Origin: Betaproteobacteria bacterium
GTDB taxonomy: Bacteria > Pseudomonadota > Gammaproteobacteria > Burkholderiales > Burkholderiaceae_C
DNA: 64,000 bases
Direction: 5' to 3'
Assembly: GCA_013289985.1 (NCBI GenBank)
Contig: JABCYW010000001.1
Coordinates: 79,772-143,771 of the forward strand
The notes beneath the pieces are model-generated. The model made no database searches and was not told where the DNA came from. It saw nothing but the letters and a program-made list of their open reading frames with translations. Positions 1,224 through 27,030 of the stretch are shown here, one piece after another (the stretch's first letter is position 1; every line of letters starts with the position of its first letter). Position numbers and translations under genes: made by a program.

Positions 1224-3005
1224 TCAGCCCTTGACGATCTTCGCGTCGGAGACCTTGGGCGCCTTGTCCTTCGGGCCGTTGATCTGGCGGTTGATCAGCC
1301 ACTGCTGCACGATGGTGAGCGTGTTGTTCGTGACCCAGTACAGCGTCAGGCCGGCCGGGAACGAGAACAGCGCGGCGCTGAACGCCAGCGGCATCAGCCA
1401 CATCATCTTGGCCTGCATCGGGTCGGCCGGCGTGGGCTGCAGCGAGACCTGCAGCAGCGACGTGGCCGTCATCAGGATCGGCAGGATCGCGTACGGATCC
1501 ATGATGGACAAGTCGTGGATCCAGCCGAGCCAGGGCGCGCCGCGCATCTCGGCCGACGACGTGAGCACCGTGAACAGCGCGATGAAGATCGGCATCTGGA
1601 TCAGGATCGGGAGGCAGCCGCCCAGCGGGTTGACCTTCTCCTCGCGGTAGATCTTCATGATCTCCTGCTGCTTCTGCTGCGGGTTGTCCTTGTAGCGGAC
1701 GTTCAGCTCCTGGATGCGCGGGTTGACGGCCTTCATCTTGGCCATCGAGCGGTACGCGTTGGCGTTGAGTCCGTAGAACGCGATCTTCAGCAGGAACACG
1801 AGCGCCACGATGGACCAGCCCCAGTTGCCGATGACCAGGTGGATCTTGCTCAGGAGCCAGAACAGCGGCTGCGCGATGATCTTGAGCAGGCCGTAGTCCT
1901 TGACCTGTTCGAGGTTGGGCGCGAGCGGGGCGAGCAGCTGTTCTTCCTGCGGGCCGGCGAACAGCGTGGCCTTGAGCGTCTGGCTGGCGCCCGGGGCGAT
2001 GGTGCCCACCGGCGTGTACAGCGCGGTGAAGTACGTGGTCTGGCCGTGGATGCCGGCGTCGTAGCGGCCCACGCTGTAGCTGCGCGCGGTGTCCGGCGGC
2101 AGGATCCAGGCCGACGAGAAGTAGTGCTGGATCATGGCGATCCAGCCGTTCTGCGACGTGGCCTTGGGATCGATGACGCCCTTTTCCTTGCCCTTGTCGA
2201 TGTCGGAGAACGAGATCTTGTGGAACGAGCCTTCGGTGTAGACCGACGGGCCGGTGTACGAGCTCGGGCCGCTGAAGTAGCCGCCCGGGGGCACGCGGCC
2301 ATCGCGCACCAGTTGCAGGTACAGGTCGGGCGCGATCGGGGCGCCGGAGTGGTTGACGACCTGGTGCGTGACGTCGATGGCGTAGCTGCCGCGATGGAAC
2401 GTGTAGGTCTTGACCAGCTGCACGCCGTCGATCTCGGGCGACTCGAAGCGCACGGCCAGCTCGTTCTTGCCGTCGGCCAGCGTGCGCTCGGTGCTCGCCA
2501 GGCGCATCACGCCGTGCTTGAGCGCGTCGCGGCCGACCAGGCCGGTGAGCCCGGTCTGCGCGGCATAGAACTGCGAATCGCTGGTGTCGAACACCTTCAC
2601 GTCGGCCTTGGGCGGCACGACGTCGTGGATGCCCACCAGGCCCTTGATCTGGCGCCAGATCTCCGAGTGGTTGTCCACGTCCTGGTACTTGAGCAGGTCG
2701 AGGTCGATCAGGTCGGCGCCCAGCGTGGTGAGCTTGGCCTTGACGACGTCGGTCTGGATGGTGACGTCCTCGATGGGCAGCGCCACGACGGCGGAGGCGG
2801 CGTCCGAAGCCGCGGTGGCGGCCGCGGCCACCGGCGGCGCGTTGTTGACGACCGCGGAGGCGGCCTGCGGCGCGACGACGGCCCTGGCGGCCGGGTGCGG
2901 CGCCAGCAGCGAGCTCTCGCCGTGATAGACGCGCCACTTGTCGAACAGCATCAGCAGCGACATCATCAAGACGACCAGCAGCAGGGTGCGGCGGAATTCG
3001 TTCAT
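1224..3005 (-). CDS. yidC: membrane protein insertase YidC
   Basis: The 593-aa product has an N-terminal TM, a large periplasmic domain and a C-terminal 5-TM Oxa1-like core (LPILIQMPIFIALF). It sits in the conserved position between yidD and mnmE. Confidence 0.9.
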   Translation of the reverse strand: MNEFRRTLLLVVLMMSLLMLFDKWRVYHGESSLLAPHPAARAVVAPQAASAVVNNAPPVAAAATAASDAASAVVALPIEDVTIQTDVVKAKLTTLGADLIDLDLLKYQDVDNHSEIWRQIKGLVGIHDVVPPKADVKVFDTSDSQFYAAQTGLTGLVGRDALKHGVMRLASTERTLADGKNELAVRFESPEIDGVQLVKTYTFHRGSYAIDVTHQVVNHSGAPIAPDLYLQLVRDGRVPPGGYFSGPSSYTGPSVYTEGSFHKISFSDIDKGKEKGVIDPKATSQNGWIAMIQHYFSSAWILPPDTARSYSVGRYDAGIHGQTTYFTALYTPVGTIAPGASQTLKATLFAGPQEEQLLAPLAPNLEQVKDYGLLKIIAQPLFWLLSKIHLVIGNWGWSIVALVFLLKIAFYGLNANAYRSMAKMKAVNPRIQELNVRYKDNPQQKQQEIMKIYREEKVNPLGGCLPILIQMPIFIALFTVLTSSAEMRGAPWLGWIHDLSIMDPYAILPILMTATSLLQVSLQPTPADPMQAKMMWLMPLAFSAALFSFPAGLTLYWVTNNTLTIVQQWLINRQINGPKDKAPKVSDAKIVKG

Positions 3006-3388
3006 GTGGGGGTGTTCGAGAAGTTTGTTTTGTCGGTCGCTGCCGGGGTCGGCGTCGCGGCGGCCGGCGCACGGCCGGAGTCAGCTTGCAGCAGGCCCGT
3101 GAACAGGCCCGCGGCGGAGGGTTCAGATGGGGACGCTTTCGCGTGATCCCAGGGCATATTGTCGGGGACCTCGTCGCACCCGCCGTGACACCACGGATTG
3201 CAACGCAGGATGCGCCAGCCGGCCAGGCCGGCGCCGACGAGGGCGCCGTGCTTTTCAAGCGCCTGTATCGCGTAGGCGGAGCAGGTGGGCGTGAAGCGGC
3301 AGCTCTGGCCCACCCACGGGCTCAGCAGCAGGCGATAGGCACGCACCACGCCCACGAGCAGCGTGCGGGGCAGGTGCAGCAGCAGCAT
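3002..3388 (-). CDS. yidD: membrane protein insertion efficiency factor YidD, with a C-terminal extension
   Basis: The conserved core SPWVGQSCRFTPTCSAYA...RCNPWCHGGCDEVP is present. The Met at 3388 overlaps the rnpA stop as TGATG, suggesting translational coupling. The stop overlaps the yidC start. Confidence 0.8.
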   Translation of the reverse strand: MLLLHLPRTLLVGVVRAYRLLLSPWVGQSCRFTPTCSAYAIQALEKHGALVGAGLAGWRILRCNPWCHGGCDEVPDNMPWDHAKASPSEPSAAGLFTGLLQADSGRAPAAATPTPAATDKTNFSNTPT

Positions 3389-4092
3389 CAGGCCGCGCAT
3401 GGCGGTCCTTCCGGCGGCCTGGCCGTGGCGGGGCGAACCTTGCCGCCCTTGCCTTTGGCGGGCAGTTCGCCCGATGGCCGCGGCTTCAGGCGATCGCGTT
3501 CACCGCGAACGGCCCGGTCGAACAGCGCGCGCAGCTCTTCGCGCGCCGCTTCCTTCAAGGCATCGGACGCGGCGCTCGGGAACTCTTTCGGATCGAACGG
3601 CGAGCGCTGGCGCACCACCCACAGGCCGGGTTCCAGCTGCGGCGCGCAGGCGGACGCCACGTTGCGGATCTGGCGCTTGACCAGTGTTCGCGTGACCGCT
3701 CGCTTGGCGTGGCGCTTGGGCACGACGAGTCCCAGCCAACGAGCGATGCCGCCCGGAGCCGTCGGGGTTTCCACCATCCCGGACGGGCCCGGAACCTGCG
3801 GGTCGTCCACATCCGTCACCGAGGAATCGGAGCGGCCTGTGGATAACTCTGTAGACAAGCTGGCGGTAACCGGTGCATGACCGGTCGCGTCGACCTCGAG
3901 GCTCGCCGTCGCCAAAACGGGTGCCATCACGGAACGCACTCCCGGCCGCTTCAAAGGCAGCGGCCTGCCGACCAGGTGATGGACGGCAAAATGGGGGCTG
4001 CGCAGACGCATCGGCGTCGCGAGCACGCGCACGTAGTCCGCCGGCCGGACGATGCGGCCGAGCAGCTGGGAATCGAGGTCGCCTGCGGTCAT
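3388..4092 (-). CDS. rnpA: ribonuclease P protein component RnpA, carrying an about 75-aa internal low-complexity insertion
   Basis: An RnpA-like N-terminus is followed by the conserved RWLGLVVPKRHAKRAVTRTLVKRQIRNV motif. The two are split by a Ser/Thr/Pro/Ala/Val-rich in-frame insert. The gene sits in the rpmH-rnpA-yidD-yidC order. Confidence 0.8.
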   Translation of the reverse strand: MTAGDLDSQLLGRIVRPADYVRVLATPMRLRSPHFAVHHLVGRPLPLKRPGVRSVMAPVLATASLEVDATGHAPVTASLSTELSTGRSDSSVTDVDDPQVPGPSGMVETPTAPGGIARWLGLVVPKRHAKRAVTRTLVKRQIRNVASACAPQLEPGLWVVRQRSPFDPKEFPSAASDALKEAAREELRALFDRAVRGERDRLKPRPSGELPAKGKGGKVRPATARPPEGPPCAA

Positions 4093-4237
4093 GGCCGCCG
4101 GCCCGGTGTGCCGTGAAGCAGGAATTCAATGCGCTGCGGCGACGTCCTCGACGAGGAGGGCGACGCGGAGACGACGAAGGCGGCAGAAGCCGCCCTGGAA
4201 TTCCTTACCGGCGAAGCGTTCAGTCCGACGTCTGGAA

Positions 4238-4372
4238 TCAGACGGCGAGACGCTTGCGACCCTTGGCGCGACGAGCAGCGATGACGCTGCGGCCGCCACG
4301 GGTCTTCATGCGGACGAGGAAGCCGTGCGTACGGGCGCGACGGACTTTGGAGGGCTGGTAGGTACGCTTCAT
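4238..4372 (-). CDS. rpmH: 50S ribosomal protein L34
   Basis: Minus-strand translation gives [44 protein letters not shown], 44 aa. It is below the ORF-track size cutoff and was found by hand. Confidence 0.95.
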
Positions 4373-4482
4373 GGATGAAAATCTCCGGGGAACCCTCGAT
4401 TAGAGCAGAGAAACGCATTACGAGTCAACGACTTGGCACGAGCGGCCGTACGATGCGGGGGGATTGACCGCGCGCCGATTTC

Positions 4483-4491
4483 TGTGGATAA
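4483..4491 (-). promoter_or_regulatory. perfect DnaA box (TTATCCACA) in the rpmH-dnaA intergenic region
   Basis: tgtggataa at 4483-4491 is the reverse complement of the consensus DnaA box TTATCCACA. It lies about 60 bp upstream of dnaA. Confidence 0.6.
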
Positions 4492-4542
4492 CCGTCATTT
4501 CGCCGTTCAGGCGCGGGTAGAATCTGCCGGCTTGAGAAGAAC

Positions 4543-4551
4543 TTGTCCACA
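4543..4551 (+). promoter_or_regulatory. DnaA box variant (TTGTCCACA) abutting the dnaA start codon
   Basis: ttgtccaca sits immediately before the ATG at 4552. This is the classic position for dnaA autoregulation. Confidence 0.5.
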
Positions 4552-6006
4552 ATGTCCCTAGACCTTTGGCACCGGAGTTGCGAGCGCCTCGCCACCGAGT
4601 TGCCCGAACAGCAATTCAGCACCTGGATCCGGCCCTTGCCGCCCGCCGATTTCACCGACGTGGGCGACGGCACGGTGGCGCTCGTGCGCGTGCCCAACCG
4701 CTTCAAGCTCGACTGGATCCGCTCGCAATACGGCTCGCGCATCGAGTCGGTGCTCACCGAACTCGCCGGCAAGCCGGTGCGCCTCGAGCTGGCGCTCGCG
4801 CCGCGCGAGGCGCCGGCCCCCGGCCACGCCCACGTGCCCACCGGCAGCGGCTTCATCACCAGCAATCCGCCGCAGCGCATCGGCGCCGTGTTCGAGCAGG
4901 CGCTGGCCAACGCGCCGACGAACGGCCATGCCGCGGCGAGCGCGCCCGCGCAGCCGCGGCCCATGCACATCGCGCCGGCCATGAACTCGCACCGGCTCAA
5001 CCCGGCGCTCACCTTCGACACGCTGGTGGCCGGCCGCGCCAACCAGATGGCCCGCACCGCGGCGCTGCACGTGGCCGGCGCGCCTGGCGCCATGTACAAC
5101 CCGCTGTTCGTCTACGGCGGCGTGGGCCTGGGCAAGACCCACCTGGTGCACGCCGTGGGCAACCAGCTGCTCAAGGACAAGCCCGACGCCCGCGTGCTGT
5201 ACCTGCACGCCGAGCAGTTCATCTCCGACGTCGTCAAGAACTACCAGCGCAAGACCTTCGACGAACTGAAGGCCAAGTACCACTCGCTGGACCTGCTGCT
5301 GATCGACGACGTGCAGTTCTTCGCCGGCAAGGAACGCACGCAGGAAGAATTCTTCAATGCGTTCGAGGCGCTGCTGTCGCGCCGCGCGCACATCATCATG
5401 ACGAGCGACACCTATCCCAAGGGTCTGGCCGACATCGATGAACGCCTCACCAGCCGCTTCGACTCCGGCCTGACGGTGGCCATCGAGCCGCCCGAGCTGG
5501 AGATGCGCGTGGCCATCCTGATCCGCAAGGCCGAAGGCGAGCAGGCGCAGATGCCCGAGGAAGTGGCGTTCTTCATCGCCAAGAACGTGCGCGCCAACGT
5601 GCGCGAGCTCGAGGGCGCGCTGCGCAAGGTGCTGGCCTACTCGCGCTTCTCGCAGAAGGACATCAACATCGCCCTGGCGCGCGAGGCGCTCAAGGACCTG
5701 CTGTCCATCCAGAACCGCCAGATCTCCGTCGAGAACATCCAGAAGACGGTGGCCGATTTCTACAAGATCAAGGTGGCCGACATGTACAGCAAGAAGCGCC
5801 CGGCGAGCATCGCCCGCCCGCGCCAGATCGCCATGTACCTGGCCAAGGAGCTCACCCAGAAGAGCCTGCCCGAGATCGGCGAGCTCTTTGGCGGCCGCGA
5901 CCACACCACCGTGCTGCACGCCGTGCGCAAGATCGGCGGCGAGCGGCAGAAGAACACCGAACTGAACCAGCAACTCCACGTCCTGGAACAGACCCTGAAG
6001 GGATGA
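4552..6006 (+). CDS. dnaA: chromosomal replication initiator DnaA
   Basis: Walker [10 protein letters not shown], an AAA+ core, and a C-terminal DNA-binding domain (RDHTTVLHA). The ORF track begins at the TTG at 4543; the ATG at 4552 (MSLDLW) is preferred. Confidence 0.95.
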
Positions 6007-7490: not shown

Positions 7491-10103
<2,613 letters not shown>

Positions 10104-10116
10104 TGTGTCGGGTGAC

Positions 10117-10190
10117 GTAGGGCGCCGAAGTAATTGCGATTGGCGCCAAAGCTGTGCGACTGGGCGCCACAGTTCTTGCGATCGCCCTAC
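10117..10190. repeat. Left copy of an about 73-bp imperfect direct repeat made of about 21-bp TGCGAYT-containing units and bracketed by the inverted ends GTAGGGCG/CGCCCTAC
   Basis: gtagggcgccgaagtaattgcgattggcgccaaagctgtgcgactgggcgccacagttcttgcgatcgccctac. By eye it is about 75% identical to the block at 13295-13367. Confidence 0.5.
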
Positions 10191-10457
10191 GAAGCCTCTG
10201 TCAACTGAACAATCGTTGACGGCTGCGGGCGGTTGGACAGCAGCAGCGAGCCCGGCGACTGCGCGCACCGAGGCCACACGCGACCTATGCAATATCAGTA
10301 GCTTGCAGCACTCGCGGCAACGGCAGCTGCAGCCGAAGCAGCGATCGCTTCCCATCCGCCCTGCGCTTTCTTCAACACCTCAACGTCCGTTGGTGCAACC
10401 AGCCAGTGCATGTGGCATTCCAACGCACAACGCTCCTCCGACAATCTAGACTGAAAA

Positions 10458-11162
10458 CTACAGGCCAGAACTGCTCGTGCGTTCGCCCTCAACCTGCTCC
10501 TTCGGCAACCCCACAGTGAGGTAAGGAGCAATGAGTCTCGCGACCTCTTTGCAGCTCCGCACAAAGTCCACAAGCTGTTCCTTCGACGGTTGCCAGCCCA
10601 TGATGGACGTGATGGTCTCATTGCGCACAGCCAGCAACCCGAACACCGCATCAAGCAGCTTGGGCTCAAGCAGCTTCCATTCCGCAGCTTTCCGAAACAG
10701 CTTGTCTGCTGTCATCACATGAGATCCGACAGGTGCACGCATGGAGACGACTTGGCGAAGTAGTTCCTCCACCTCTATCCAAGCACGCTCAATGATCGAC
10801 AGCGGAGGAACGCCGGCCTGAACTTGTTCCGCCGCAGACAGCGAGTATTCGTCTGCGTAGTGCAGGCGATCAAAGTCTTCGGGAATGGAGACAGGACGAG
10901 GAATGTCATCGGAAGCAGCATCCCTTGTCTTCGCCCTCACCATGCGCTTCTTACGCAGCGCGTCGAGATCGAGCCGCACCCGATCCATCGTCTTTTCAAA
11001 CGTGAGCTTCAGTTTGCCTTTGTCATACTCGGCACTCTTGATGCGGTCAACAAGGCGCACGAGGGCACCGCGCACGATCACGATCACAACGCCACCCAGC
11101 AGGATGACGACGGCCGGCCAGCGCACCGCTTCAATGATCTTCGCCAACCCCGCAGCATCCAT
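10458..11162 (-). CDS. Hypothetical membrane-anchored protein, paralog 1 (N-terminal TM, charged linker, C-terminal helical domain with an AW.EVE...GWQP signature)
   Basis: The 234-aa product has a TM segment WPAVVILLGGVVIVIV. It is paralogous along its whole length to the upstream ORF 11247-12125 (shared LIDRVK after the TM, AW(I/Q)EV(E/R), (S/T)I(M/S)GWQP). It lies in the lower-GC block. Confidence 0.6.
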   Translation of the reverse strand: MDAAGLAKIIEAVRWPAVVILLGGVVIVIVRGALVRLVDRIKSAEYDKGKLKLTFEKTMDRVRLDLDALRKKRMVRAKTRDAASDDIPRPVSIPEDFDRLHYADEYSLSAAEQVQAGVPPLSIIERAWIEVEELLRQVVSMRAPVGSHVMTADKLFRKAAEWKLLEPKLLDAVFGLLAVRNETITSIMGWQPSKEQLVDFVRSCKEVARLIAPYLTVGLPKEQVEGERTSSSGL

Positions 11163-11246
11163 CCTAGCTCTCCCGATCCCTTTGCCTCGAAGTCTCGCAC
11201 GCCGTCGAGGCCAAACTACAGCCCAGCGCTTGTAGTGCGTTCACCT

Positions 11247-12044
11247 TCAATCGGCTACCTTCGGTAGACCCAGCGCAAGGTGCATGCTCAATAGTGTCAC
11301 GACCTCCCCCGCGTTCTGCACGTATTCCAAGACTTGAACCTGGTTCGGCTGCCAACCAATCGTGCTCATCGCATCGTTGTGGATCATCATGAGTTCAACG
11401 ACAGCTTTGTAGAGCGAACCCGTGAGCTTGCCTGCTCGATGTGCACGCCCAACAAGCTGCTCATCCGGAATGCCATCGAGCGACCACCAGTCCGTCGCAG
11501 TCTTCTCCAATCCGAGCACTTTGTAGAGCATCCCACGCACCTCTTGCCAAGCGTGGTGAATCACAACGGGTGGAGCATTCTTGTAGACCTCCATCATGCG
11601 GAGCCAGTTGCGCTGGTCATCCTCGTAGTCCTTCATGCTGAACATGGGAGTGCCAGGCAGAGGCATCGCGGCATCTCTGAAGCGATAGGGCTTTGGCTGG
11701 CCTTGCGCAGCAGCTTCAGTATCAACCTCTTCGATCATGCGCCGGACGCCCTTGTCCGTTGCCTCCGGCTTGACATCCTCGACAGTTGGTTTCTGCTTCT
11801 CAACCTCTTCCTTGGCAACCGCGACGTTCTCCTTGACTTCGCCCAGTTGGTCGGCGATGTCAACGGTGACGCCTTCTTTGCTTGCACTGACCTTCTTGAC
11901 GCGATCGATGAGCGCACCGATCTTGGCCTTCTGCTGGACGAGGAAGACGACCACCACGAGCGGCCAAGCAAACGCAGCAATGAGCGTGACAAGGTGCCCA
12001 GTCTGCTTCTCGATGAAGCTCAGTATCAGCTCAGCCCATTCCAT
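11247..12044 (-). CDS. Hypothetical membrane-anchored protein, paralog 2
   Basis: TM segment LVTLIAAFAWPLVVVVFLV, a coiled/charged linker, and a C-terminal domain homologous to paralog 1. The ORF track starts at 12125; the start chosen here is the Met (MEWAEL) at 12044 just before the TM. The true start is uncertain. Confidence 0.55.
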   Translation of the reverse strand: MEWAELILSFIEKQTGHLVTLIAAFAWPLVVVVFLVQQKAKIGALIDRVKKVSASKEGVTVDIADQLGEVKENVAVAKEEVEKQKPTVEDVKPEATDKGVRRMIEEVDTEAAAQGQPKPYRFRDAAMPLPGTPMFSMKDYEDDQRNWLRMMEVYKNAPPVVIHHAWQEVRGMLYKVLGLEKTATDWWSLDGIPDEQLVGRAHRAGKLTGSLYKAVVELMMIHNDAMSTIGWQPNQVQVLEYVQNAGEVVTLLSMHLALGLPKVAD

Positions 12045-12322
12045 GCCCTGCTCCTCTTCTTCTTTGCCGCGAAGTCTCCCACACCAGCGACTGCAGCGCA
12101 CGAAGCTCATTGCCTGCGCCGCCATCGTCCTGCTCTCTGCTCACGTCCAGGCATACGTTTTCATTTTGCTGCGAGCGGCAGACCTCATTCCGCGCTCATT
12201 GATACAGCCACCCCTATTTCGGGTGGTTGCGCGAAGCGCCCGGCATCGGCCCAATGATCGGTCGCGCGCCACTTCAGCATTGAATTGCGTAGCCCGTCCA
12301 CCTACACGGTACTGACCGCCAC

Positions 12323-12817
12323 ATGTCGAACGTTCTCAAGGACATCTACAAGTCCAAGGGTAAGCTGGAAAACTACTTTGACGACAAAACGCCAGTTGCT
12401 CTCTGGCGTGGTCAAAAGCGAGATCTGATCAAGAAAAAGCGGGGGGGCCTCTACCCTGAGCTTACCGGCTTCGTGCGTGGCGACGGAACGTTTCGCATTC
12501 CCGACGTCGATGTCTTCGAGCGCGAGAGCGACGGCGTCACGATGGTCCGCGGTTGTCGGTGTGTTGCAGGCGAAGGCGACTACCGCGGTGTGTCGACGTT
12601 CGACGTCATGCCTGATCTTGGCAAATCATTCATGTACTTCCGTATCCCGGGTGGCACGGCAATCCCGGAAGCGCTTGCGGTGACCAAGGACACGTTCAAC
12701 CGACGCTTCGGTGGTTACCATTACACCGTTGCGCCGAAAGACGACATGCCGTTGAGCCTCTTCCTTGTCTGGCTGGGTGCGATCGAGGCGAGCCTGAAGG
12801 CTGAAGGAGGCAAGTGA
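12323..12817 (+). CDS. Hypothetical 164-aa protein, candidate toxin/effector of a two-gene module
   Basis: An ORF in the lower-GC block with no confidently recognised domain. It contains FERES and GGYHYTVAPKDD motifs. Its stop overlaps the start of the following 87-aa ORF as ATGA. Confidence 0.5.
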   Translation: MSNVLKDIYKSKGKLENYFDDKTPVALWRGQKRDLIKKKRGGLYPELTGFVRGDGTFRIPDVDVFERESDGVTMVRGCRCVAGEGDYRGVSTFDVMPDLGKSFMYFRIPGGTAIPEALAVTKDTFNRRFGGYHYTVAPKDDMPLSLFLVWLGAIEASLKAEGGK

Positions 12818-13077
12818 TGACCGAACCGATCCGATTGACCGACCAGGCAGTGATCACCGCTGCCCGGGCCTTGATCATGGAAAACAAGCGCTGTGCGGCG
12901 AAGCTCAAGGACGACTCGCTTTCAGACGAACAGGCCGAGTATTTCGGTGACTACGTCCAGTTGTTGGACGCAGCGATGGGCGAGATCGAGGCGCTCTACG
13001 TCGAGCGTCAGGCGACGAATCGGCACATGGGGTCGTTCGACGCGCTCTACGAGTCGGTCTTGCTCGACAAGGACTGA
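12814..13077 (+). CDS. Hypothetical 87-aa acidic helical protein, candidate immunity/antitoxin partner
   Basis: It has a 4-nt overlap with the upstream ORF. It is small, acidic and predicted all-helical (DEQAEYFGDYVQLLDAAMGEIEALYVERQ), which is typical of cognate immunity proteins. Confidence 0.45.
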   Translation: MMTEPIRLTDQAVITAARALIMENKRCAAKLKDDSLSDEQAEYFGDYVQLLDAAMGEIEALYVERQATNRHMGSFDALYESVLLDKD

Positions 13078-13113
13078 TGCGGGTCAGCCTGTTTTTCCGC
13101 AAGCCCGATCCGA

Positions 13114-13150
13114 GCGCCCTGGGCTCGACGGAGGGCGCGGCGGGATATTT
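13114..13150 (+). terminator. Candidate intrinsic terminator after the two-gene module
   Basis: Inverted repeat GCGCCCT-(11 nt)-AGGGCGC at 13114-13138 is followed by the AT-rich stretch gggatatttcattta. Confidence 0.3.
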
Positions 13151-13280
13151 CATTTATCGTGTCACACCCGTCGGAACCTGTCAGTAATCGTGTCACTTCT
13201 CTTGGACAGGCGTGACACGGAAAGTGAAAAAGGCGAGCAAAATCAATGGTGTTCATTTCACTTTTCGTGTCACCCGACAT
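13147..13280. repeat. Array of four CGTGTCAC-core repeats (three direct, one inverted) with interleaved inverted repeats, in an AT-richer non-coding stretch
   Basis: tcgtgtcac at 13157-65, 13188-96 and 13265-73; gtgacacg at 13212-19. Repeats 1 and 3 share an extended TTCATTT..TCGTGTCACMCCCG context. Interleaved inverted pairs cctgtc/gacagg and cgtgtcac/gtgacacg follow an A-B-A'-B' arrangement. Confidence 0.5.
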
Positions 13281-13294
13281 GAGTTGTACGCCGC

Positions 13295-13367
13295 GTAGGG
13301 CGCCAGAGTAAATGCGACTCGCGCCACAGTTCTGCGACTGAACGGCGCTAGTTGGTGCGACTACCGG
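13295..13367. repeat. Right copy of the about 73-bp imperfect direct repeat (TGCGACT units)
   Basis: gtagggcgccagagtaaatgcgactcgcgccacagttctgcgactgaacggcgctagttggtgcgactaccgg. It aligns with 10117-10190 and ends 1 nt before the ATG at 13368. Confidence 0.45.
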
Positions 13368-13577
13368 ATGTCGCGAATCCTTCCCAGACACTGGCTCGCG
13401 CTGGCTCAAAAGTCTGGCGTCCCCGACTTGGCGCAGTCGATGGTTCTGCTCGCAAAGGGCGTCGAGACTGCGCTGGAAGTTGCGAAGGAGATGTTGCCCG
13501 AAGGCTTTCCGGATCTTCTCTGGCACTCCATCGCGACCGGCACAAGTCGCCAGGCAAAGACTTTCTTGGCCGCGTAG
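13368..13577 (+). CDS. Possible small helical protein of 69 aa, low confidence
   Basis: The ORF starts immediately after the right repeat block and has a helical composition. There is no domain support, and the competing ORF 13352-14263 in another frame looks spurious. Confidence 0.25.
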   Translation: MSRILPRHWLALAQKSGVPDLAQSMVLLAKGVETALEVAKEMLPEGFPDLLWHSIATGTSRQAKTFLAA

Positions 13578-13607
13578 CTGACGGCGGAGGAAGTCACCAA
13601 GCAGGAT

Positions 13608-14231
13608 TTGATATCCATGCCGTCCATTCTGACAATCATTCGCGCAAGCCTCTCGGCGTTGGCCCTCGCTGCCATCGGTGCGCAACTGGTGCTGCACGTT
13701 GGCGCGTCGCACAGCGTTCTGAACTTCTTCAGCTATTTCACGAATCTCTCCAACCTGGTCGCCGCGTCGGTCTTGCTCCTTTGCGCGTTCGACGTGGGGT
13801 CAAGCAGCAAGGGATCGATGACGCTGGCGCGATACGTGTCGGCTGTGAACATGGCCGTGGTTGGTCTCGTGTTTGCCGTGCTGCTCCGAAACACGGATTT
13901 CGGGACGCTTCTTCCATGGGTCAACTTCGTCCTCCACTACGTCATGCCCGTCGCTGTCGTCCTGGACTGGCTGGCCGATCCACCGGGGCTGAAGCTGCAC
14001 TCGAACAGCCACTTTCTTCCGCTCCTGTTCCCCGCGTTCTATCTCGTGTATGTCTTGCTGCGCGGCGCTTCGACAGGTTGGTATCCCTATCCGTTTCTGA
14101 ACCCGGCGAACGTTGGTGGCTACGGCGGGGTCGCCGCGTACTCTCTGGGCATCGCCGTCGCAGTCCTTCTGGCGAGTTGGTTGTTGCTCGCAGCTGGCAA
14201 CCGCCGCGCAAGCGCGAAATCGCGCGCCTGA
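13608..14231 (+). CDS. Pr6Pr-family (FAR-17a/AIG1-like) integral membrane protein
   Basis: A 207-aa product with multiple TM helices and conserved Trp/Pro residues (LHYVMPVAVVLDWLADPP, FLPLLFPAFYLVYVLLRG). Its GC content is still somewhat lower than the core genome. Confidence 0.6.
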   Translation: MISMPSILTIIRASLSALALAAIGAQLVLHVGASHSVLNFFSYFTNLSNLVAASVLLLCAFDVGSSSKGSMTLARYVSAVNMAVVGLVFAVLLRNTDFGTLLPWVNFVLHYVMPVAVVLDWLADPPGLKLHSNSHFLPLLFPAFYLVYVLLRGASTGWYPYPFLNPANVGGYGGVAAYSLGIAVAVLLASWLLLAAGNRRASAKSRA

Positions 14232-14334
14232 CCCAGCGGCGCATGAACGTACCTTCTTTCTGAACCCGTCGTTCATCAGCCTTCTGAAGCAGGATTGAAC
14301 GGCGCCCGGCATGTGTCGGGAATGTCCGCGGCAC

Positions 14335-15080: not shown

Positions 15081-16211
15081 TCAATGGCCCGATGCGGCGC
15101 TCTTGATCGGCGCCGCGGCATTGCGCTCGAGCCACGCGCGTTGCACCGGGTCGATCAGCATCCAGCCGCGGCCGTCGGTCCTGCGCTCCAGCATCCCCTT
15201 GGCCGCAAGCGCTTCGAGCGCGCGGCTGATGCTGGAGGGCGCGACCCTGGCGCCCAGCTGAGCGGCGGCCCAGACGACGCTGTCGGCGGCGGTCGGCGGC
15301 CTGTCCTCGAACACCAGGCGCAGCGCGACCTGCTGCAGGCCGGTGAGGCCGCGCCAGGTGGCCGACCACTTGTTGGGCGAGTGCTGGCTGAGCATCTCGT
15401 CGAGCGCGCGATCCAGCGTCCAGGCCGGGTTGGCCATCACCAGGCTCACGGCATGCAGGAACGGCTCGGGCTGGGTGCCCAGCTGCTGGAAGGTCTCGTG
15501 GGCCAGCACCTGGTTCAGGTCGCGCCGCGTCGCCTCGTGGAACTTGCGCGCCACGAAGCCGATGAAATCCAGGCCTAGCGGCTCGTAGCCCTCGGTCTTC
15601 GCGAAGCCGTACAGCGGCGTGTTGGTGCGCGAGAACATGTCCAGCAGCTGCACGTCGGACGAGCCGGAGAAGATCGCGCCGATGCGCTTGTCGGCCTGCG
15701 TGAGCGCGGCGCGCAGCGACGCCGAGATCTGCGGGCCGTTCTTCGCCGACGCGATCGACTGGAATTCGTCGAAGACCAGCACCACGTCATGCGTCGTCTC
15801 CTCCAGGATCTGGGTGAGCAGGCTGTCGAGCATCAGCGCGGGCCGGTCCGGCGTCTGGCGCTTCGGCGGATCGCCGAGGTCGATGCTCGCGCCCATCACG
15901 CCCAGCCGCTTCACCGGCGTGCTGCCCGTGCGCTTCATGCCCCGGGGCTGCACGCTGAGGCCTTCCAGCGCCTTCTGCAGCGCGTAGTTGATGCCTTGCA
16001 GCGGGTCGTCCATGTCCATCCAGCAGTCGATGTAGACGGCGATGGCGCCGCGCGACTGCACGTACGGGATGACCTCGTCGCGCAGCAGCGTGGTCTTGCC
16101 GGTCTGGCGCGGGCCGAACATCGCGATGCGCTCGTGCGCGAGCAGGCGCTTGCCCAGCGCGGTGGCCAGCGGCGCGCGGGCGTGGTGCCACGCCTGGGTC
16201 AGGTCGGACAT
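15081..16211 (-). CDS. AAA+ superfamily ATP-binding protein (COG1373-like) with a C-terminal winged helix
   Basis: Walker A GPRQTGKTT, Walker B VLVFDEF, and a C-terminal wHTH-like region. Confidence 0.8.
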   Translation of the reverse strand: MSDLTQAWHHARAPLATALGKRLLAHERIAMFGPRQTGKTTLLRDEVIPYVQSRGAIAVYIDCWMDMDDPLQGINYALQKALEGLSVQPRGMKRTGSTPVKRLGVMGASIDLGDPPKRQTPDRPALMLDSLLTQILEETTHDVVLVFDEFQSIASAKNGPQISASLRAALTQADKRIGAIFSGSSDVQLLDMFSRTNTPLYGFAKTEGYEPLGLDFIGFVARKFHEATRRDLNQVLAHETFQQLGTQPEPFLHAVSLVMANPAWTLDRALDEMLSQHSPNKWSATWRGLTGLQQVALRLVFEDRPPTAADSVVWAAAQLGARVAPSSISRALEALAAKGMLERRTDGRGWMLIDPVQRAWLERNAAAPIKSAASGH

Positions 16212-16458
16212 GGTGGCTTGCGCAAAGTGAATCGATGGCGAATTTTACGCATCGGTGCGTAATTGCGCAAACACGTGGCGATGCCGGGGCATGGCGCGCT
16301 GCGAGGCGCGCCACCGGCACCTTGACCCCTCCCGATTTACCCGCAGTCCGCCGGGCCGGCGCTCCGGTGTAACCACCCGTTCCATTCGTCAATTCGAGTG
16401 AACTGGCCGGTCCTGACGAGCTCTACTTTGGACTGCAGGCCTCGGGTGCCTGCATACT

Positions 16459-18213
16459 GTGAGGATGAGCGAAGATTTCAAGCCCGGGACGAGGCCGCTG
16501 CTGCGGCTGGCCGGGCTCGATGCCGTGCGAGCATTCGTGTCGCGTGCAGAAGAGACGCACGTGATCTGGACCGCCGTCGTCGCATTGATGTTGCGGCTGT
16601 ACCAGGAACCCGATGCCAAGGCCCGACGCGAGTCCGGGCCGACGGACTCGCAGGTGGTCACGGCCCTGCGCGTCGTGCTGGGCGAGAACTTCGGCAGCGA
16701 GGCGGCCGACTACACCTCCTGGGCGCTGGTGCGCTACGGCTGCCGCCAGAAGCCCACCATGAGCGCCCTGCATCCGTGGGAAGGCCTGATGTTCGAGTGG
16801 CAGCAGCGCCGCGCCAGCGCGCCGCGCATCGCCCTGATGCTGCGCGACGGGGGCATGGAAAAGCCGCTCAAGGCCGCGTCGCTCGAGTCCATCGACGGCT
16901 GGGTCACCGACCCGGTGAAGGCGCTTGGCGAGGCCACCGAGATCGTGGAGGCCCTGTTCGGCGAGCGCCTCGTCTCGTACAACCTGCACGACGACGGCAC
17001 CACGCCCGCGCACGACACGCTGTTCGGCGGCCTGGTGGCCTCGCTGCTGCCGCAGGGCCGCCTGCAACAGCTGCGTCAGGCGCTGGTGCGCACCGAGGAC
17101 CGCGCGGTCTGGCGCGTCGAGTATGTGTTCGAGGACGAGACCGCCGTCTTCGAGGCCCCGGCCCGCGGCTCCACGATGGACGTGGACGCCGTGATGGCGG
17201 CCGTCGACGCCCTGATGGAGCGCCTCGGCCGGCCCGAGCGCGTCTACCGCCTGGCCCCGGGCCGCTACAACAACGGCGAGATCGGCGTGTTCGTGCTCGC
17301 CGACTCCGGCAGGTTTCCCGAGATCGCCTGGCGCCTGCGCCTGCCGCTGCTGCGCAGCCCCAGCCTGGCCGACCTGCCGCCGGGCATCGCCACGGCCGCG
17401 CCCGAGCCGCTGCGTGTCGGCGCGCGCCCGATGGCGCCGCGCCCGCCCTCGGTGGTGGCCGCGGCCGCCCGCGAGGCGGCGCAGGACGACGTGGCCGTGG
17501 CCACGGGACCGGGCGCCACGGCGCCGATGTCGCTGCTCGAATCGCAGTTCGTCACCCCGATGCCGGCGCCGTCCGGGCCGGTGGAGCGCGCCGCCGACGC
17601 GACGATGAAGCAGCTGATCAACGCGCTGCGCCGCTCGTTCGGCGCCGGCCGGCTGCTGCAGGGCGGCCGCTGGATGAAGCAGGTGCGCACCGAGCCGCCG
17701 GCGTGGATGACGGCCGGCGGCGACCCCGTGCGCATCTTCTACGAGAAGCAGGAGACGCTGTTCCGCAAGGGCCGCATCGGCTGGGGCGCGCTGGTGCAGG
17801 CCGACGACGGCGTGTTCGCGCGGGGCGAGGACGACCTGCCGGGCGTGCTCGTCTACAGCGAGGACGAATACTTCGACGCCCGCCCGATGGAGCTCGCCGC
17901 CATCGGCGCGCGGCTGCTGGAGTTGAAGTCCGCCGGCGGCGCGTCCGACCTGGCCCGCTTCGCCCAGGGCGTGCGCAACGACACCGGCCGTCCATTGGGC
18001 CTGACGGTGCCCGCGGCGCTCAGCGCCAAGGAGCCGTTCCTGAGCAGCTTCGTGGCGATCCGCGCGCACCTGCCCGACGGCATCCTGGCCGGGGCCTGGT
18101 TCCCGGTGCTGATCCACTCGTCCAGCGTCGTGCCGATGATCGTGCCGTCCACGTTCTGGCCGCCCGCGCTGCTGCAGGCCTGGAACGAGCGGCGCATGGT
18201 GCTCGAGGCCTGA
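16459..18213 (+). CDS. hypothetical protein of 584 aa with no recognisable domain and a central Pro/Ala-rich linker
   Basis: A long ORF with native high GC, divergent from the ATPase gene. No motif was recognised. Confidence 0.55.
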   Translation: MRMSEDFKPGTRPLLRLAGLDAVRAFVSRAEETHVIWTAVVALMLRLYQEPDAKARRESGPTDSQVVTALRVVLGENFGSEAADYTSWALVRYGCRQKPTMSALHPWEGLMFEWQQRRASAPRIALMLRDGGMEKPLKAASLESIDGWVTDPVKALGEATEIVEALFGERLVSYNLHDDGTTPAHDTLFGGLVASLLPQGRLQQLRQALVRTEDRAVWRVEYVFEDETAVFEAPARGSTMDVDAVMAAVDALMERLGRPERVYRLAPGRYNNGEIGVFVLADSGRFPEIAWRLRLPLLRSPSLADLPPGIATAAPEPLRVGARPMAPRPPSVVAAAAREAAQDDVAVATGPGATAPMSLLESQFVTPMPAPSGPVERAADATMKQLINALRRSFGAGRLLQGGRWMKQVRTEPPAWMTAGGDPVRIFYEKQETLFRKGRIGWGALVQADDGVFARGEDDLPGVLVYSEDEYFDARPMELAAIGARLLELKSAGGASDLARFAQGVRNDTGRPLGLTVPAALSAKEPFLSSFVAIRAHLPDGILAGAWFPVLIHSSSVVPMIVPSTFWPPALLQAWNERRMVLEA

Positions 18214-24008: not shown

Positions 24009-25623
24009 TCCTTGGGGTGACCCAGCGCGCGAAGAGCGCGAACAGGCCCTGCACCACCAGGGCCAGCACCGCGGCCGGCACCGCGCCGGCCAGCAGCATC
24101 GCGTAGTCGTTGAGCGCCAGGCCCGTGACGATGCGCTCGCCCAGGCCGCCGGCGCCGACGAAGGCCGCGATCGTGGCCGTGCCCACCGTGATGACCGCGG
24201 CGGTGCCGATGCCGGCCATGAGCGTGGGCAGGGCCAGGCGCACGTCGACGGCCGTCCAGCGCTGCGCGGGCGTCAGGCCCAGCGCCGTGCCCGCCTCGCG
24301 CAGGCCCATGGGCACGCCCAGCAGCCCGGTGGCGGTGTTGCGCGCGATCGGCAGCAGCGCGTAGAGCGTCAGCGCCACCAGCGCCGGGCCGGTGCCGATG
24401 CGGCCCAGCAGCGGGATCAGCATCGCCAGCAAGGCCAGCGACGGGATGGTCTGCAGCACGCCCACCGTGGCCATCACCGGGCCCTCGGTGCGCGGGTACG
24501 CCGCCGCCGCGGCGCCCAGCGGCACGCCCAGCACGGTGGCGCAGGCCACGGCCACGATCACCAGCAGCAGGTGCTGGCCCAGCAGGCGCGCGAGGTCGGC
24601 GGCGAACAGGCGCTTCAGGAAGCGCGGGCCCAGCGCCTCGCGTTGCCCGGCGTCGTCGACGGCCGTCTGCGCGGTCGCGTCGAAGTGGCCGCCGACGAAT
24701 TCCTTCGCGATGTCGGCGAAGGGCTCGTGGCGCAGTTCGGCGCGGCCGTTCATCGCGATCATCGTGGAGGCCGGGATGCGGCCGGCGAGCGCCTGCAGCG
24801 CCTGCCACTGCGCCGGGTGGCGCGCGGGCGCGTCGAGGCGGTACAGCAGCACGGCGTCGTAGTGCGGGAAGTAGTCCCTGTCGTCGGCCAGCACGCGCAG
24901 GTGGCGCGGGGCGATCTGCGCGTCGGTGGTGTAGATGTCGGTGACGGCGATCTTGCCGCTGGCCAGCGCGTCGTACGACAGGCCGTGGTCGATGCCCACC
25001 GGGTGCGCGGCGAGGCCGTAGCGCCTGGACAAGCCGGGCCAGCCGTCCATGCGGCCCAGGAACTCGTGCGACAGGCCCAGCACGACGTCGGGATGGTCGG
25101 CCAGGTCGCTGATGCGCGTGATGTGCAGGCGCTCGGCCTCGTCGGCCGGCATGGCCAGCGCGTAGCCGTTGGAAAAGCCCAGTGGCACGCCCAGGCCCAG
25201 GCCCTGCGCGGCCAGTTCGCGGGTGACGACGTCGCGCGTGACTGGCGTGCGGTGGCCCAGGATCTCCTCTTCGACGGTGCCCAGGTACTCCGGGTAGACG
25301 TCGATCGCGCCGGCCTTCAGCGCGGCGAGCACGACGGCCGTGTTGCCTAGCCCTTCGCGATGTTCGGCCGGGCCGGCGGTGGCCGCGGTCTGGCGCAGCA
25401 CCTCGCCGAGGATGTACGACTCGGTGAAGCGCTTGGAGCCGACGATCAACGCACCGCTGGCGTTGGCCCACGGCGCCGACGCGGGCGCCAGCGCGAGGGC
25501 GCGCGGGACGGCGTTGATGACGGGATCGGCCGCGCGGGCGGGGCTCGCGGCGGCGAGCAGGCCGGCGGCGAATGCGAGCGTCGCCACGAGGCGGCGGGCG
25601 GCCGACAGGCTGGCCAGTGTCAT
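24001..25623 (-). CDS. ABC transporter fused substrate-binding domain and permease (glycine betaine/osmoprotectant OpuBC-like)
   Basis: A signal peptide and OpuAC-like binding domain sit N-terminally. A C-terminal 5-6-TM permease carries an EAA-like loop (REAGTALGLTPAQRW). Confidence 0.8.
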   Translation of the reverse strand: MTLASLSAARRLVATLAFAAGLLAAASPARAADPVINAVPRALALAPASAPWANASGALIVGSKRFTESYILGEVLRQTAATAGPAEHREGLGNTAVVLAALKAGAIDVYPEYLGTVEEEILGHRTPVTRDVVTRELAAQGLGLGVPLGFSNGYALAMPADEAERLHITRISDLADHPDVVLGLSHEFLGRMDGWPGLSRRYGLAAHPVGIDHGLSYDALASGKIAVTDIYTTDAQIAPRHLRVLADDRDYFPHYDAVLLYRLDAPARHPAQWQALQALAGRIPASTMIAMNGRAELRHEPFADIAKEFVGGHFDATAQTAVDDAGQREALGPRFLKRLFAADLARLLGQHLLLVIVAVACATVLGVPLGAAAAAYPRTEGPVMATVGVLQTIPSLALLAMLIPLLGRIGTGPALVALTLYALLPIARNTATGLLGVPMGLREAGTALGLTPAQRWTAVDVRLALPTLMAGIGTAAVITVGTATIAAFVGAGGLGERIVTGLALNDYAMLLAGAVPAAVLALVVQGLFALFARWVTPRIN

Positions 25624-25725
25624 GCGAGGTCCGCGATGAATTGCAAAGGAGGGCTATCGTCGCACGGCCGTGGCCCGAAAGCGCGCGCTGCGGGAAAATG
25701 CAGCAATCACTTACCAGTCGTCGCC

Positions 25726-27030
25726 GTGTCCACTGTCTCTCCTGAATCCGCCGCACCCCTGAACGCGGGCAGCGGCTCGCTGTCCGATCTCGCGCAGCGC
25801 GATCGCTTCCTGCAGGCCCTGGCCCAGGGCGTGGCCGACGGCAGCGCCGTGCGCGTGCTGCTCAGCAAGCCCGGCGCCAAGGACGACGACCTCGAACGCG
25901 TGACGGCCCGCCCGCTGGTGCTGCGCGGCGAGCGCTGCCTGTCGTTCGTCTTCAAGCACCGCACCAGGGACATCACGAAGAACGAGCCCGTGGCCACGGC
26001 GCTGGAGACGATCGCCGGCCTCGTGGGCACGCGATTCGCGCACGCGCACCTGTTCACGCGCGACGCCGAGCTGCAGCTGATGATGAGCCGCAAGGGGCGC
26101 TACACGCTGCATCGCGCCAGGCTCGGGACCGACGACGCGACGCGGCCCGCCGTGGCCGCGGCGGCCGAGGACGACGGCGCGCGGCACGATCGCCAGAAGC
26201 ACCGCTACCTGAGCCTGGATGCGCCGTTCCTCGTCGAGCTGGGCGTCACCAGCGCGCGCCACGAGCTGGTGCCGGCGATGGCGCGCAAGTGGAAGCAGAT
26301 CAACAAGTTCGTGGAGGTGATGTCGCATGCGCTCGAATCGGCGGGCGTGGGCGCGACGGCGCCGCTCAACATCGTCGACTTCGGCGCGGGCAAGGGCTAC
26401 CTCACGTTCGCGCTGCACGACTGGCTGCGCCGCCAGGCCGCAGGCGCGCCGCGCGTGCTGGACGTGGTGGGCGTGGAGCTGCGGCCCGACCTCGTCGAGC
26501 TGTGCAACGACGCGATCGCGAAATGCGGGCTGCAGGGCCTGCGCTTCGAGGCCGGCGACGTGAGCAGCTTCGTGCCGCGGCGCCTGGATGTGATGATCGC
26601 GCTGCACGCCTGCGACACCGCCACCGACCACGCGCTGCACACCGGCATCCGCGCCGGCGCATCCATCATCATGTGCTCGCCGTGCTGCCACAAGCAGATC
26701 CGTCCGCAGATGCGGATGCCCTCGCTGCTCAAGCCCATGCTCCAGCACGGCATCCACCTGGGCCAGCAGGCCGAGATGGTCACCGACGGCCTGCGCGCCC
26801 TGCTGCTGGAGGCGCACGGCTACGACGCGCAGGTGTTCGAGTTCGTGGCGCTGGAGCACACCAGCAAGAACAAGATGATCCTGGCCGTGCGGCGGCAGGG
26901 CCGCCAGGACACGCCGCAGGCCGAGCGCCGGCGCGCCGACGTGCTGGCGCAGATCGCGGAGCTGAAGCAGTTCTACGGCATCCGCGAGCACTGCCTCGAG
27001 ACGCTGCTGGCCGAACCCGAGACGGCTTGA
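25726..27030 (+). CDS. class I SAM-dependent methyltransferase
   Basis: IVDFGAGKGYLTFAL glycine-rich SAM-binding motif. The start is tentatively the GTG at 25726, because the ORF-track N-terminal extension is low-complexity. Confidence 0.65.
   Translation: MSTVSPESAAPLNAGSGSLSDLAQRDRFLQALAQGVADGSAVRVLLSKPGAKDDDLERVTARPLVLRGERCLSFVFKHRTRDITKNEPVATALETIAGLVGTRFAHAHLFTRDAELQLMMSRKGRYTLHRARLGTDDATRPAVAAAAEDDGARHDRQKHRYLSLDAPFLVELGVTSARHELVPAMARKWKQINKFVEVMSHALESAGVGATAPLNIVDFGAGKGYLTFALHDWLRRQAAGAPRVLDVVGVELRPDLVELCNDAIAKCGLQGLRFEAGDVSSFVPRRLDVMIALHACDTATDHALHTGIRAGASIIMCSPCCHKQIRPQMRMPSLLKPMLQHGIHLGQQAEMVTDGLRALLLEAHGYDAQVFEFVALEHTSKNKMILAVRRQGRQDTPQAERRRADVLAQIAELKQFYGIREHCLETLLAEPETA

Follow-up and report, generated by a model that had tools for sequence, protein, structure and literature searches.

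Analysis of a 64,000-nucleotide stretch of a Betaproteobacteria bacterium genome (assembly GCA_013289985.1, contig JABCYW010000001.1, positions 79,772 to 143,771; hereafter the window) led us to the reading, with a probability of roughly 0.6, that the block of low GC content directly downstream of gyrB was built up by small transposase-free cassettes, inserted repeatedly at one site and in one orientation and since decayed, and that a repeat of about 74 bp, here termed R and present in two direct copies (R_L and R_R), is the end of one family of such cassettes. The conserved gyrB gene (7497–10103, plus strand, an open reading frame of 868 amino acids) would supply the insertion site in its 3' flank.

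A sliding-window profile places the GC content at 0.555–0.61 across ~10.2–14.2 kb versus 0.65–0.75 on either side, and codon usage follows the same division. The GC content at third codon positions (GC3) and the codon adaptation index (CAI, calculated with the core and flanking genes as reference set) amount to 0.67–0.83 and 0.26–0.43 for the genes TM_A, TM_B, Tse2L, Imm87, frag69 and Pr6Pr, versus 0.93–0.97 and 0.74–0.81 for dnaA, dnaN, gyrB, GATase, AAA376 and p584. The low-GC accessory block that a first-pass annotation of the window had described by eye is thus real, although the repeats do not bracket it as proposed there: beyond the right copy follow frag69 and Pr6Pr, which are as foreign in composition as the rest of the island. 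The island extends over ~4.2 kb from the gyrB stop codon to the stop codon of the convergent GATase gene (10104–14334), and homology to a sister metagenome contig (L096) picks up again at 14335. In relatives, the synteny yidC-rnpA-rpmH-dnaA-dnaN-gyrB is conserved and stops at the gyrB stop codon. The annotation had reported no recombinase, transposase or tRNA target, and we likewise detected no tRNA gene in the 64-kb window; a domain scan of the proteins encoded at 10.4–18.2 kb turned up neither a recombinase nor a transposase. Its suggestion of defence cargo did not lead to a known system, as PADLOC-DB 2.0 returned no match (E ≤ 0.1) for TM_A, TM_B, Tse2L, Imm87, frag69 or Pr6Pr; PHROGs gave no match for any island protein.

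The left repeat, R_L (10116–10190, plus strand), is separated from the gyrB stop codon by 12 nt and would represent the gyrB-proximal terminus of an R-type cassette. Members of the R family start with the terminal inverted repeat CGTAGGGCGCC, followed by three subterminal repeats of ~21 bp, presumably candidate binding sites for the mobilising enzyme. R_L shows the three TGCGAYT-ending units and the GTAGGGCG/CGCCCTAC bracket described previously; its third unit, which ends in CGCCCTAC, departs from the family consensus. R_R (13294–13368, plus strand), read as a second R-type terminus, lies in direct orientation, with a degenerate 3' third that is joined to a hipA gene stump. Alignment of the two copies, the only ones in the window, confirmed the earlier estimate of ~75% identity over ~73 nt and yielded 83% over 47 nt (10116–10162 versus 13294–13340). 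Immediately before R_R, at 13280–13293 on the plus strand, the sequence TGA plus GTTGTACGCCG resembles a gyrB stop codon that was displaced along with its 11-nt spacer. Of the 43 loci in which R adjoins gyrB, 40 have a stop codon and spacer of this form and length in front of R (TGA GTTGTAGGTTCG in L189, for instance).

A pattern built from the invariant columns of R was used to search metagenome and viral contigs. R was found in 95 metagenome contigs and in no viral contig. It adjoins gyrB in 43 cases from 35 lineages, co-oriented with the gene in every one of them, and begins 10–17 nt after the stop codon in 40 of the 43, most often at 12–13 nt. In Pelomonas cellulosilytica P8 (L011), one copy lies 12 nt after the gyrB stop codon and a second, almost identical to it, 3.6 kb further on; this strain also has one copy of the partner end R' described below. 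Contigs with 94–100% nucleotide identity have R and hundreds of downstream bases in common, while their upstream sequences differ within 0–9 nt of the 5' edge of R. A dispersed repeat of the repetitive extragenic palindromic (REP) type or a bacterial interspersed mosaic element was rejected, given two copies in the window and a single exact match in each contig of 107, 151, 200, 292 and 867 kb; the genome-wide REP-like element that would have undermined the island claim of the first-pass annotation is not what R turned out to be. A side observation concerns tandem R pairs with no cargo between them, which occur 60–230 nt apart in eight loci (L105, L116, L156, L159, L166, L172, L185 and L194), some of them truncated, and which may be empty or collapsed units.

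The nature of R as an end emerges from its partner. Upstream of many R copies away from gyrB lies a different element of ~74 nt in inverted orientation, R', which at 11 loci faces the adjoining R head-to-head, with 5 nt between the two (GGCGCCCTACG-N5-CGTAGGGCGCC). In L104, L181 and L159, R' occurs alone, 1.4–2.9 kb downstream of a gyrB-adjacent R. The termini of R and R' share 11–12 nt in inverted form, with 9–12 of 12 positions matching in seven units. The R...R' units measure 1.5–3.6 kb and carry one to three cargo genes, including Fic/DOC, DUF5677, reverse transcriptase and proteins of no known family, with no transposase inside them. Perfect 5-bp duplications flank three of five units (CGCGG in L181, TAAGA in L159, GTAGA in L011), and in L104 the right flank after R' repeats the native gyrB flank from nucleotide 9 onwards. 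With a terminal inverted repeat shared between R and R' and 5-bp target duplications in relatives, transposon-type ends describe the repeats better than the att or iteron type first suggested for them. Elsewhere, genes of defence and mobility abound in the cargo near R (type I restriction-modification, BREX BrxC, HNH, AAA_15, RmrAT, dGTPase, Abi-type, IS66 and Mutator), mixed with ordinary genes.

Several observations weigh against this interpretation. Neither a transposase, nor TnsABC/TniQ, nor a dedicated recombinase was found next to any R end or next to any end of the second, M-type family described below. The termini of R read CG...CG (CGTAGGG...CCCTACG) and not TG...CA as is typical of DDE transposons. 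The 5-bp duplication is perfect in only three of the five units, and L152 has none. Most gyrB-adjacent R copies come without a detectable R' in the available sequence (up to ~10 kb, L128 and L146), and in L139, L176 and L153 R is followed by ordinary metabolic genes. As for the window itself, a targeted profile search found no R' (E = 0.13 and 3.3), a clean 5-bp duplication is missing (TGATG and TGAGT, which flank the M-type unit, agree at only three of five positions), and the order of events was rebuilt from junction sequences. Finally, the cassette model leaves unexplained the 10-bp direct repeat ATGTGTCGGG, which occurs in the 64-kb window only at 10103–10112, where its first base is also the final one of the gyrB stop codon, and at 14311–14320, 14 nt short of the GATase gene end (both plus strand), that is, at both compositional boundaries. 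A by-eye candidate for R' at the right boundary of the window (GGCGCCCGGC) was dropped after the profile search gave no support. Inverted TGCGAYT clusters were not found either; R' carries no such motif, so this is uninformative on the partner end.

The junctions could also be read in terms of a tyrosine recombinase (integrase or Xer), an explanation that we regard as rather unlikely. R would then be an attachment (att) site (attB, yielding attL and attR), comparable to pdif modules or to integrative mobile elements exploiting Xer, and cassettes would enter and leave as circles with the help of an enzyme encoded elsewhere, with GGCGCCCTACG-N5-CGTAGGGCGCC as a core site in which two inverted arms that bind the recombinase surround a crossover spacer, and the TGCGACT repeats as arm or accessory sites. 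The 11-5-11 palindromic junction at 11 loci, the three tandem direct repeats next to the core, reminiscent of the lambda P' arm sites, the recombinase-free modules, as in pdif modules, and the fixed position and orientation all speak for it, and the identity of the flanking 5 nt may reflect a shared crossover region instead of a target duplication. However, the flanking 5-mers (CGCGG, TAAGA, GTAGA) differ by lineage and match the local gyrB flank, as transposition predicts, whereas the crossover of a circular cassette would have to match every host. Moreover, the gyrB side of most junctions lacks an inverted arm, and no integrase is tied to R: the one P4-type integrase found (L107) sits next to a tRNA gene, is unrelated to R and was discarded as att evidence. 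Overlap regions of tyrosine recombinases usually span 6–8 nt, longer than the 5-nt spacer, which is a further point against att sites.

Still less probable, and in our estimate quite improbable, is that R is a native, selectively conserved non-coding element of the gyrB 3' flank, for instance a binding site for a protein or a portion of a 3' UTR, which was duplicated incidentally by recombination as unrelated islands entered a generic hotspot between convergent genes. Such an element would account for R always lying downstream of gyrB on the same strand, for the single copies that precede ordinary metabolic genes in several lineages and for the strong conservation of R across hosts whose gyrB C-termini are only 61–96% identical, but near-identity across distant hosts fits horizontal spread better. 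R is also missing from most Burkholderiales, being present in only 1 of 80 genome loci sampled and absent from the close relatives L006–L008 and from the sister contig L096, and a native element leaves R', the terminal inverted repeat, the 5-bp duplications and the head-to-head junctions unexplained. Nor is there structural covariation: RNAalifold found 0 compensatory pairs (covariation term −0.07), and the named structure did not outperform shuffles. A structured RNA or tRNA-like element was rejected on the same grounds, together with the lack of a credible Rfam match and of consistent folding stability.

Returning to cassette insertion at gyrB, none of the 80 reference-genome relatives has any window gene downstream of gyrB, so that only two metagenome contigs, L096 and L184, are informative on the empty site. 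The 3' end of gyrB in L096 shows ~91% nucleotide identity to the window and is followed by 279 nt, a block with the toxin gene Tse2L and its presumed immunity gene (81% nucleotide identity), unrelated genes and GATase; the left repeat R, the TM gene pair, the hipA stump and Pr6Pr are absent. L184, whose gyrB C-terminus is 96% identical, has R followed by wholly different cargo, and Pr6Pr is likewise missing. The comparison with relatives proposed by the first-pass annotation thus yielded one contig without the left repeat and most of the cargo and one with the repeat and other cargo. As the Tse2L-containing block occurs in differing contexts and the cargo of L096 and L184 differs, the island is, judged by sequence comparison, a mosaic of independent modules. 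At the place where the window has R_R and the hipA stump, L096 carries a 91-amino-acid gene and a 441-amino-acid multi-pass membrane protein (2123–3724), the latter without a Pfam or PHROG match; a first guess from size that the two form a hipBA pair was dropped.

A second family of ends, the M-type, appears to use the same gyrB flank and to bound the toxin cassette. In the window, an M-motif array (13148–13279) contains three copies of GTGACAC-NN-AAAGTGAAA (13148–13165 minus, 13212–13229 plus, 13256–13273 minus) and ends in the terminus ...GTGTCACCCGACA at 13279; the array is conserved in L099. The dense CGTGTCAC array reported earlier was recovered too, GTGACACNNAAAGTGAAA being matched 3 times against 0.08 expected. 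A long form of the M end has a 5'-TGT end and consists of TGTCGGGTGACAC..AAAGTGAAA followed by two more AGTGAAA repeats (three AGTGAAA in all). In L096, in L006 and in L080, the last of these gammaproteobacterial, the distance from the gyrB stop codon to an M-type end is 2–11 nt, and in L099 two such ends abut across 5 nt (ACA/GATCT/TGT). Between gyrB and R_L, the sequence TGTCGGGTGA (10106–10115, plus strand) equals the start of the post-gyrB end of L096, TGTCGGGTGACACATAAAGTGAAA, and is the perfect inverse of 13270–13279; together these two sequences enclose the TM pair and the Tse2L cassette as well as R_L. TGTCGGGTGA may represent the opening 10 nt of an M-type end truncated by R_L, or else native spacer; a similar sequence, TGTCGGCTGG, stands before R in L184.

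Taken together, the junctions suggest that the window holds a stack of at least three decayed units, with the R copies as same-end termini of successive insertions. We infer that an intact unit, R-cargo-R', would land ~12–13 nt after the gyrB stop codon by transposition with a 5-bp target duplication. With the target measured from gyrB, each new unit would come to lie between gyrB and the earlier one, push older units outward and leave direct repeats of R behind. In the order that we propose, an R-type unit (R_R) with hipA and probably Pr6Pr would have inserted first and later suffered an internal deletion. An M-type unit with the Tse2-like toxin/immunity pair may then have entered at the stop codon, followed by an R-type unit (R_L) with the TM genes; its entry point, 12 nt past the stop codon, would have fallen within the left end of the M-type unit, and ~280 nt would have been lost. 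The cargo is probably made up of conflict and addiction genes. Of the site-specific insertion that the first-pass annotation envisaged, cargo acquired after gyrB, repeats as scars and a toxin/immunity pair stand, whereas a single cassette between two att scars does not.

The toxin cassette (12200–13279, plus strand) behaves as a transferable block that comprises the promoter region, the two genes and, 3' of them, the M-motif array. Its left edge (12200/12201) is common to the window, L096 (81% nucleotide identity) and L099 (88%), and the L096 copy adjoins gyrB, while that of L099 adjoins a patatin/CD-NTase locus resembling a cyclic-oligonucleotide-based antiphage signalling system (CBASS). A 57%-identical toxin pair lies in a plasmid-like or integrative and conjugative element-like locus (L098). 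The toxin gene, Tse2L (12323–12817, plus strand, 164 amino acids), and its presumed immunity or antitoxin gene, Imm87 (12814–13077, plus strand, 87 amino acids, or 86 from the ATG at 12817), overlap by 4 nt, in line with the earlier description. The annotation had named no family for any of the four proteins enclosed by the repeats. For Tse2L this is incorrect: residues 8–144 match Pfam PF18648 (ADPRTs_Tse2) with 43.5 bits (gathering score 26.6; E = 6.5e-11), and the match to the Tse2 structure in PDB 5AKO reaches E = 1e-5 for the single sequence and E = 2e-10 for the family profile. R29, S91 and H133 are invariant in an alignment of 12 Tse2L homologs. Of the residues of the predicted catalytic pocket of Tse2 (R14, T79, S80 and H122), S80 and H122 are kept, aligning with S91 and H133, and T79 is replaced by the near-invariant V90; R14 is probably kept as well, the match of R29 to it lying outside the printed alignment. 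A single-sequence AlphaFold model of Tse2L reached a mean predicted local distance difference test score of 30.9.

Imm87 homologs always lie directly downstream of Tse2L homologs. The family is small, with three representatives, and Imm87 is 45% identical (E = 5e-26) to its counterpart in L098, where the toxin is 57% identical. As in Tse2-Tsi2, a small acidic protein follows directly downstream, and the size ratio of Tse2L to Imm87 (164/87 amino acids) is similar; Tse2 and Tsi2 of Pseudomonas aeruginosa measure 158 and 77 amino acids. Unlike the known pair, Tse2L has no type VI secretion system (T6SS) context, the pair travels as an independent cassette, and Imm87 has no detectable sequence similarity to solved structures, Tsi2 included. 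The two genes are adjacent, co-oriented, overlapping and co-inherited, and occur on mobile or defence loci, as expected of a type II-like toxin-antitoxin or addiction module. Tse2L/Imm87 is therefore most likely, as far as sequence and context indicate, a toxin-antitoxin-like stabilising or abortive-infection pair; within the Tse2 family the pair is unremarkable, whereas its setting, a cassette without a T6SS, is unusual. A putative open reading frame of 36–42 amino acids was called directly after the immunity gene in each cassette copy (window 13077–13187, L001 4429–4539; and L099), overlapping the first M motif. In L099, the trio of patatin, CD-NTase and DACNG-domain genes (2686–5042, CBASS-like) directly follows the M-type end that abuts the Tse2L cassette and may be the cargo of a second M-type unit.

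A role as a working T6SS effector-immunity pair, with the TM proteins as parts of the same weapon and the island as a competition locus, appears unlikely to us. The family assignment of Tse2L and its conserved pocket residues would agree with such a role, as would the Hcp1-dependent export of P. aeruginosa Tse2 as T6SS cargo (preprint 10.64898/2026.06.15.732508) and the VgrG and PAAR genes found in R-adjacent cargo at other loci. However, no Hcp, VgrG, PAAR or other T6SS gene lies beside Tse2L in the window, L096, L098 or L099 (64 kb of genome available); the neighbours in these four contexts are gyrB, CBASS-like and plasmid or integrative and conjugative element genes. Homologs of the TM pair, moreover, never co-occur with Tse2L homologs.

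The remaining two genes enclosed by the repeats encode membrane proteins on the minus strand. TM_B (11247–12044, 265 amino acids) combines an N-terminal transmembrane (TM) helix and a low-confidence linker with a C-terminal HEPN-like helical domain (~residues 155–257), and in TM_A (10458–11162, 234 amino acids, GC3 0.67) a hydrophobic helix at the N-terminus and a linker precede a C-terminal domain that is a homolog of the HEPN-like domain of TM_B. The paralogy proposed earlier holds, with 24% identity over 207 amino acids (E = 7e-13), and TM_A has no Pfam, PADLOC or PHROG match. The HEPN-like domain of the pair adopts the four-helix up-down arrangement of the HEPN fold. The Rx4-6H motif is not found in the alignment of the TM pair, the corresponding position reading IHNDAMST, IRNDAITT or VRNETITS with no histidine 4–6 residues after R/H, and because this canonical motif is lacking, RNase activity of the domain is doubtful. 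The pair thus differs from HEPN defence proteins such as HepT/MNT, AbiA, HepS, Csx1/Csm6 and the predicted HEPN-TM proteins, with R/H-N-D/E-x-x-S/T-T in place of Rx4-6H and as two membrane-anchored proteins outside any Pfam, PADLOC or PHROG family.

The TM family is very rare, and its homologs always occur as an adjacent two-gene membrane module, in which the partner is a paralog or an unrelated TM protein. These modules sit beside SIR2+DUF87, Mrr, GmrSD, HEPN, TIR, IS66 and integrase genes, in settings typical of defence islands, which makes the TM-HEPN-like pair a candidate membrane-associated defence or exclusion module; the earlier label of membrane effectors is not supported as such. In L086 (6366–9340) such a module stands beside a SIR2_2 and DUF87 (HerA-like) pair, and in L090 (7853–9748) beside GmrSD_N and a double-HEPN protein; in both, the second module gene encodes an unrelated TM protein of 251–263 amino acids with a cysteine-rich C-terminus.

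To the right of R_R, frag69 (13368–13577, plus strand, 69 amino acids, GC3 0.73) preserves the final ~66 codons of a gene for a kinase toxin of the HipA family. In a tblastn search it shows 38% identity to residues 376–440 of a 448-amino-acid protein of L168 (E = 7e-10), itself a HipA by comparison with E. coli HipA (E = 5e-99), and it gives a weak direct match to residues 367–421 of the E. coli protein. A database of 5.8 billion sequences returned only frag69 itself, which is a gene remnant and not a full-length kinase with catalytic motifs. In another lineage, a gyrB-adjacent R has an intact hipA ~9.5 kb downstream of it (L168 177–1520), and hipA may be a recurrent cargo at the gyrB site. 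The adjacent Pr6Pr gene (13608–14231, plus strand, GC3 0.76, CAI 0.32) encodes a multi-pass membrane protein that matches NCBIfam NF038065 (E = 1e-26).

Comparison with established systems revealed partial likeness to three of them. Tn7-like elements, with Tn7 downstream of glmS, share the fixed short distance downstream of a highly conserved, essential gene, a single orientation, the 5-bp duplication and subterminal repeats of ~20 bp, as well as asymmetric ends with repeats tightly packed on the gene-proximal side, tandem accumulation and defence-rich cargo. M-type ends, which begin 5'-TGT and carry repeats, resemble Tn7 or Mu ends in their anatomy, whereas R-type ends start with CG. Unlike Tn7-like elements, the units measure only 1.5–3.6 kb, and no tnsA, tnsB, tnsC or tniQ was found in or near them. 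For lack of tns genes we rejected the idea that R is one end, the right one, of a complete Tn7-like transposon, and TnsA-like Pfam matches near R proved to be the nuclease domain of a helicase and not Tn7 machinery. The pdif modules of Acinetobacter plasmids are similarly small, lack a recombinase, often carry toxin-antitoxin or resistance genes and have 11-nt arms with a spacer in head-to-tail arrangement. The R units differ from them in a site unrelated to dif, a spacer of 5 instead of 6 nt, a chromosomal, gyrB-specific location, ends of ~74 nt with internal repeats and flanking 5-mers that behave like target duplications. Mobile insertion cassettes and passenger-carrying miniature inverted-repeat transposable elements likewise have terminal inverted repeats around passenger genes, no transposase, movement in trans and target duplications, but mobile insertion cassettes use many sites and the ends of a known insertion sequence, whereas R units are strictly site- and orientation-specific and have no known parent insertion sequence. 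The cassettes thus lack at least one tested defining feature of each of the three systems. A literature search returned no description of a gyrB-flank repeat, element or attachment site, and gyrB as an attachment site had 0 occurrences in the main texts of the Tn7 papers retrieved.

Beyond the window, we tentatively propose that the R/R' and M-type ends delimit two families of trans-mobilised cassettes at the gyrB 3' flank across Burkholderiales, the M-type also in Gammaproteobacteria, which would form an integron- or mini-Tn7-like shuttle for single defence or toxin genes, with the TM-HEPN-like pair as a new anti-phage or exclusion system; we consider this wider proposal somewhat less probable than its negation. 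Should the ends prove to be what we take them for, the 3' flank of gyrB would be a dedicated landing pad on which small cassettes without an enzyme of their own stack up, and thereby a new attachment site and a new route for single toxin and defence genes between genera, intermediate in kind between mini-Tn7 elements, pdif modules and integron cassettes. Mining for candidate new defence genes such as the TM-HEPN-like pair could then start from the 75-nt R motif, or from CGTAGGGCGCC at 12–13 nt after gyrB, and the same handle would help to find the mobilising enzyme, for which recognition of the gyrB end is a requirement. For the Tse2 toxin family, the cassette copies indicate circulation as stand-alone toxin/immunity units outside a visible T6SS context.

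Some observations concern the surroundings of the island. Adjoining it at 15081–18213 and with native codon usage (GC3 0.95) are a gene for a 376-amino-acid AAA ATPase (AAA_14/AAA_22/ATPase_2, with a weak PADLOC match to mad8 at E = 9e-7) and a divergent gene for a 584-amino-acid protein without a family match. Neither gene lies downstream of gyrB in any relative, and the variable region may reach past the low-GC block. In L007, the closest metagenome-assembled genome, the first window homolog after gyrB is that of the gene at 25351–27027 (L007 12610–13755, 55% identity), only ~1.9 kb after gyrB, which suggests that ~15 kb of the window (10–25 kb) is variable at the genus level. Upstream of the island, the rpmH-dnaA intergenic region (~4200–4500) shows a local GC minimum of 0.61 and a turn in the cumulative GC skew, which fits a replication origin ~6 kb from the island.

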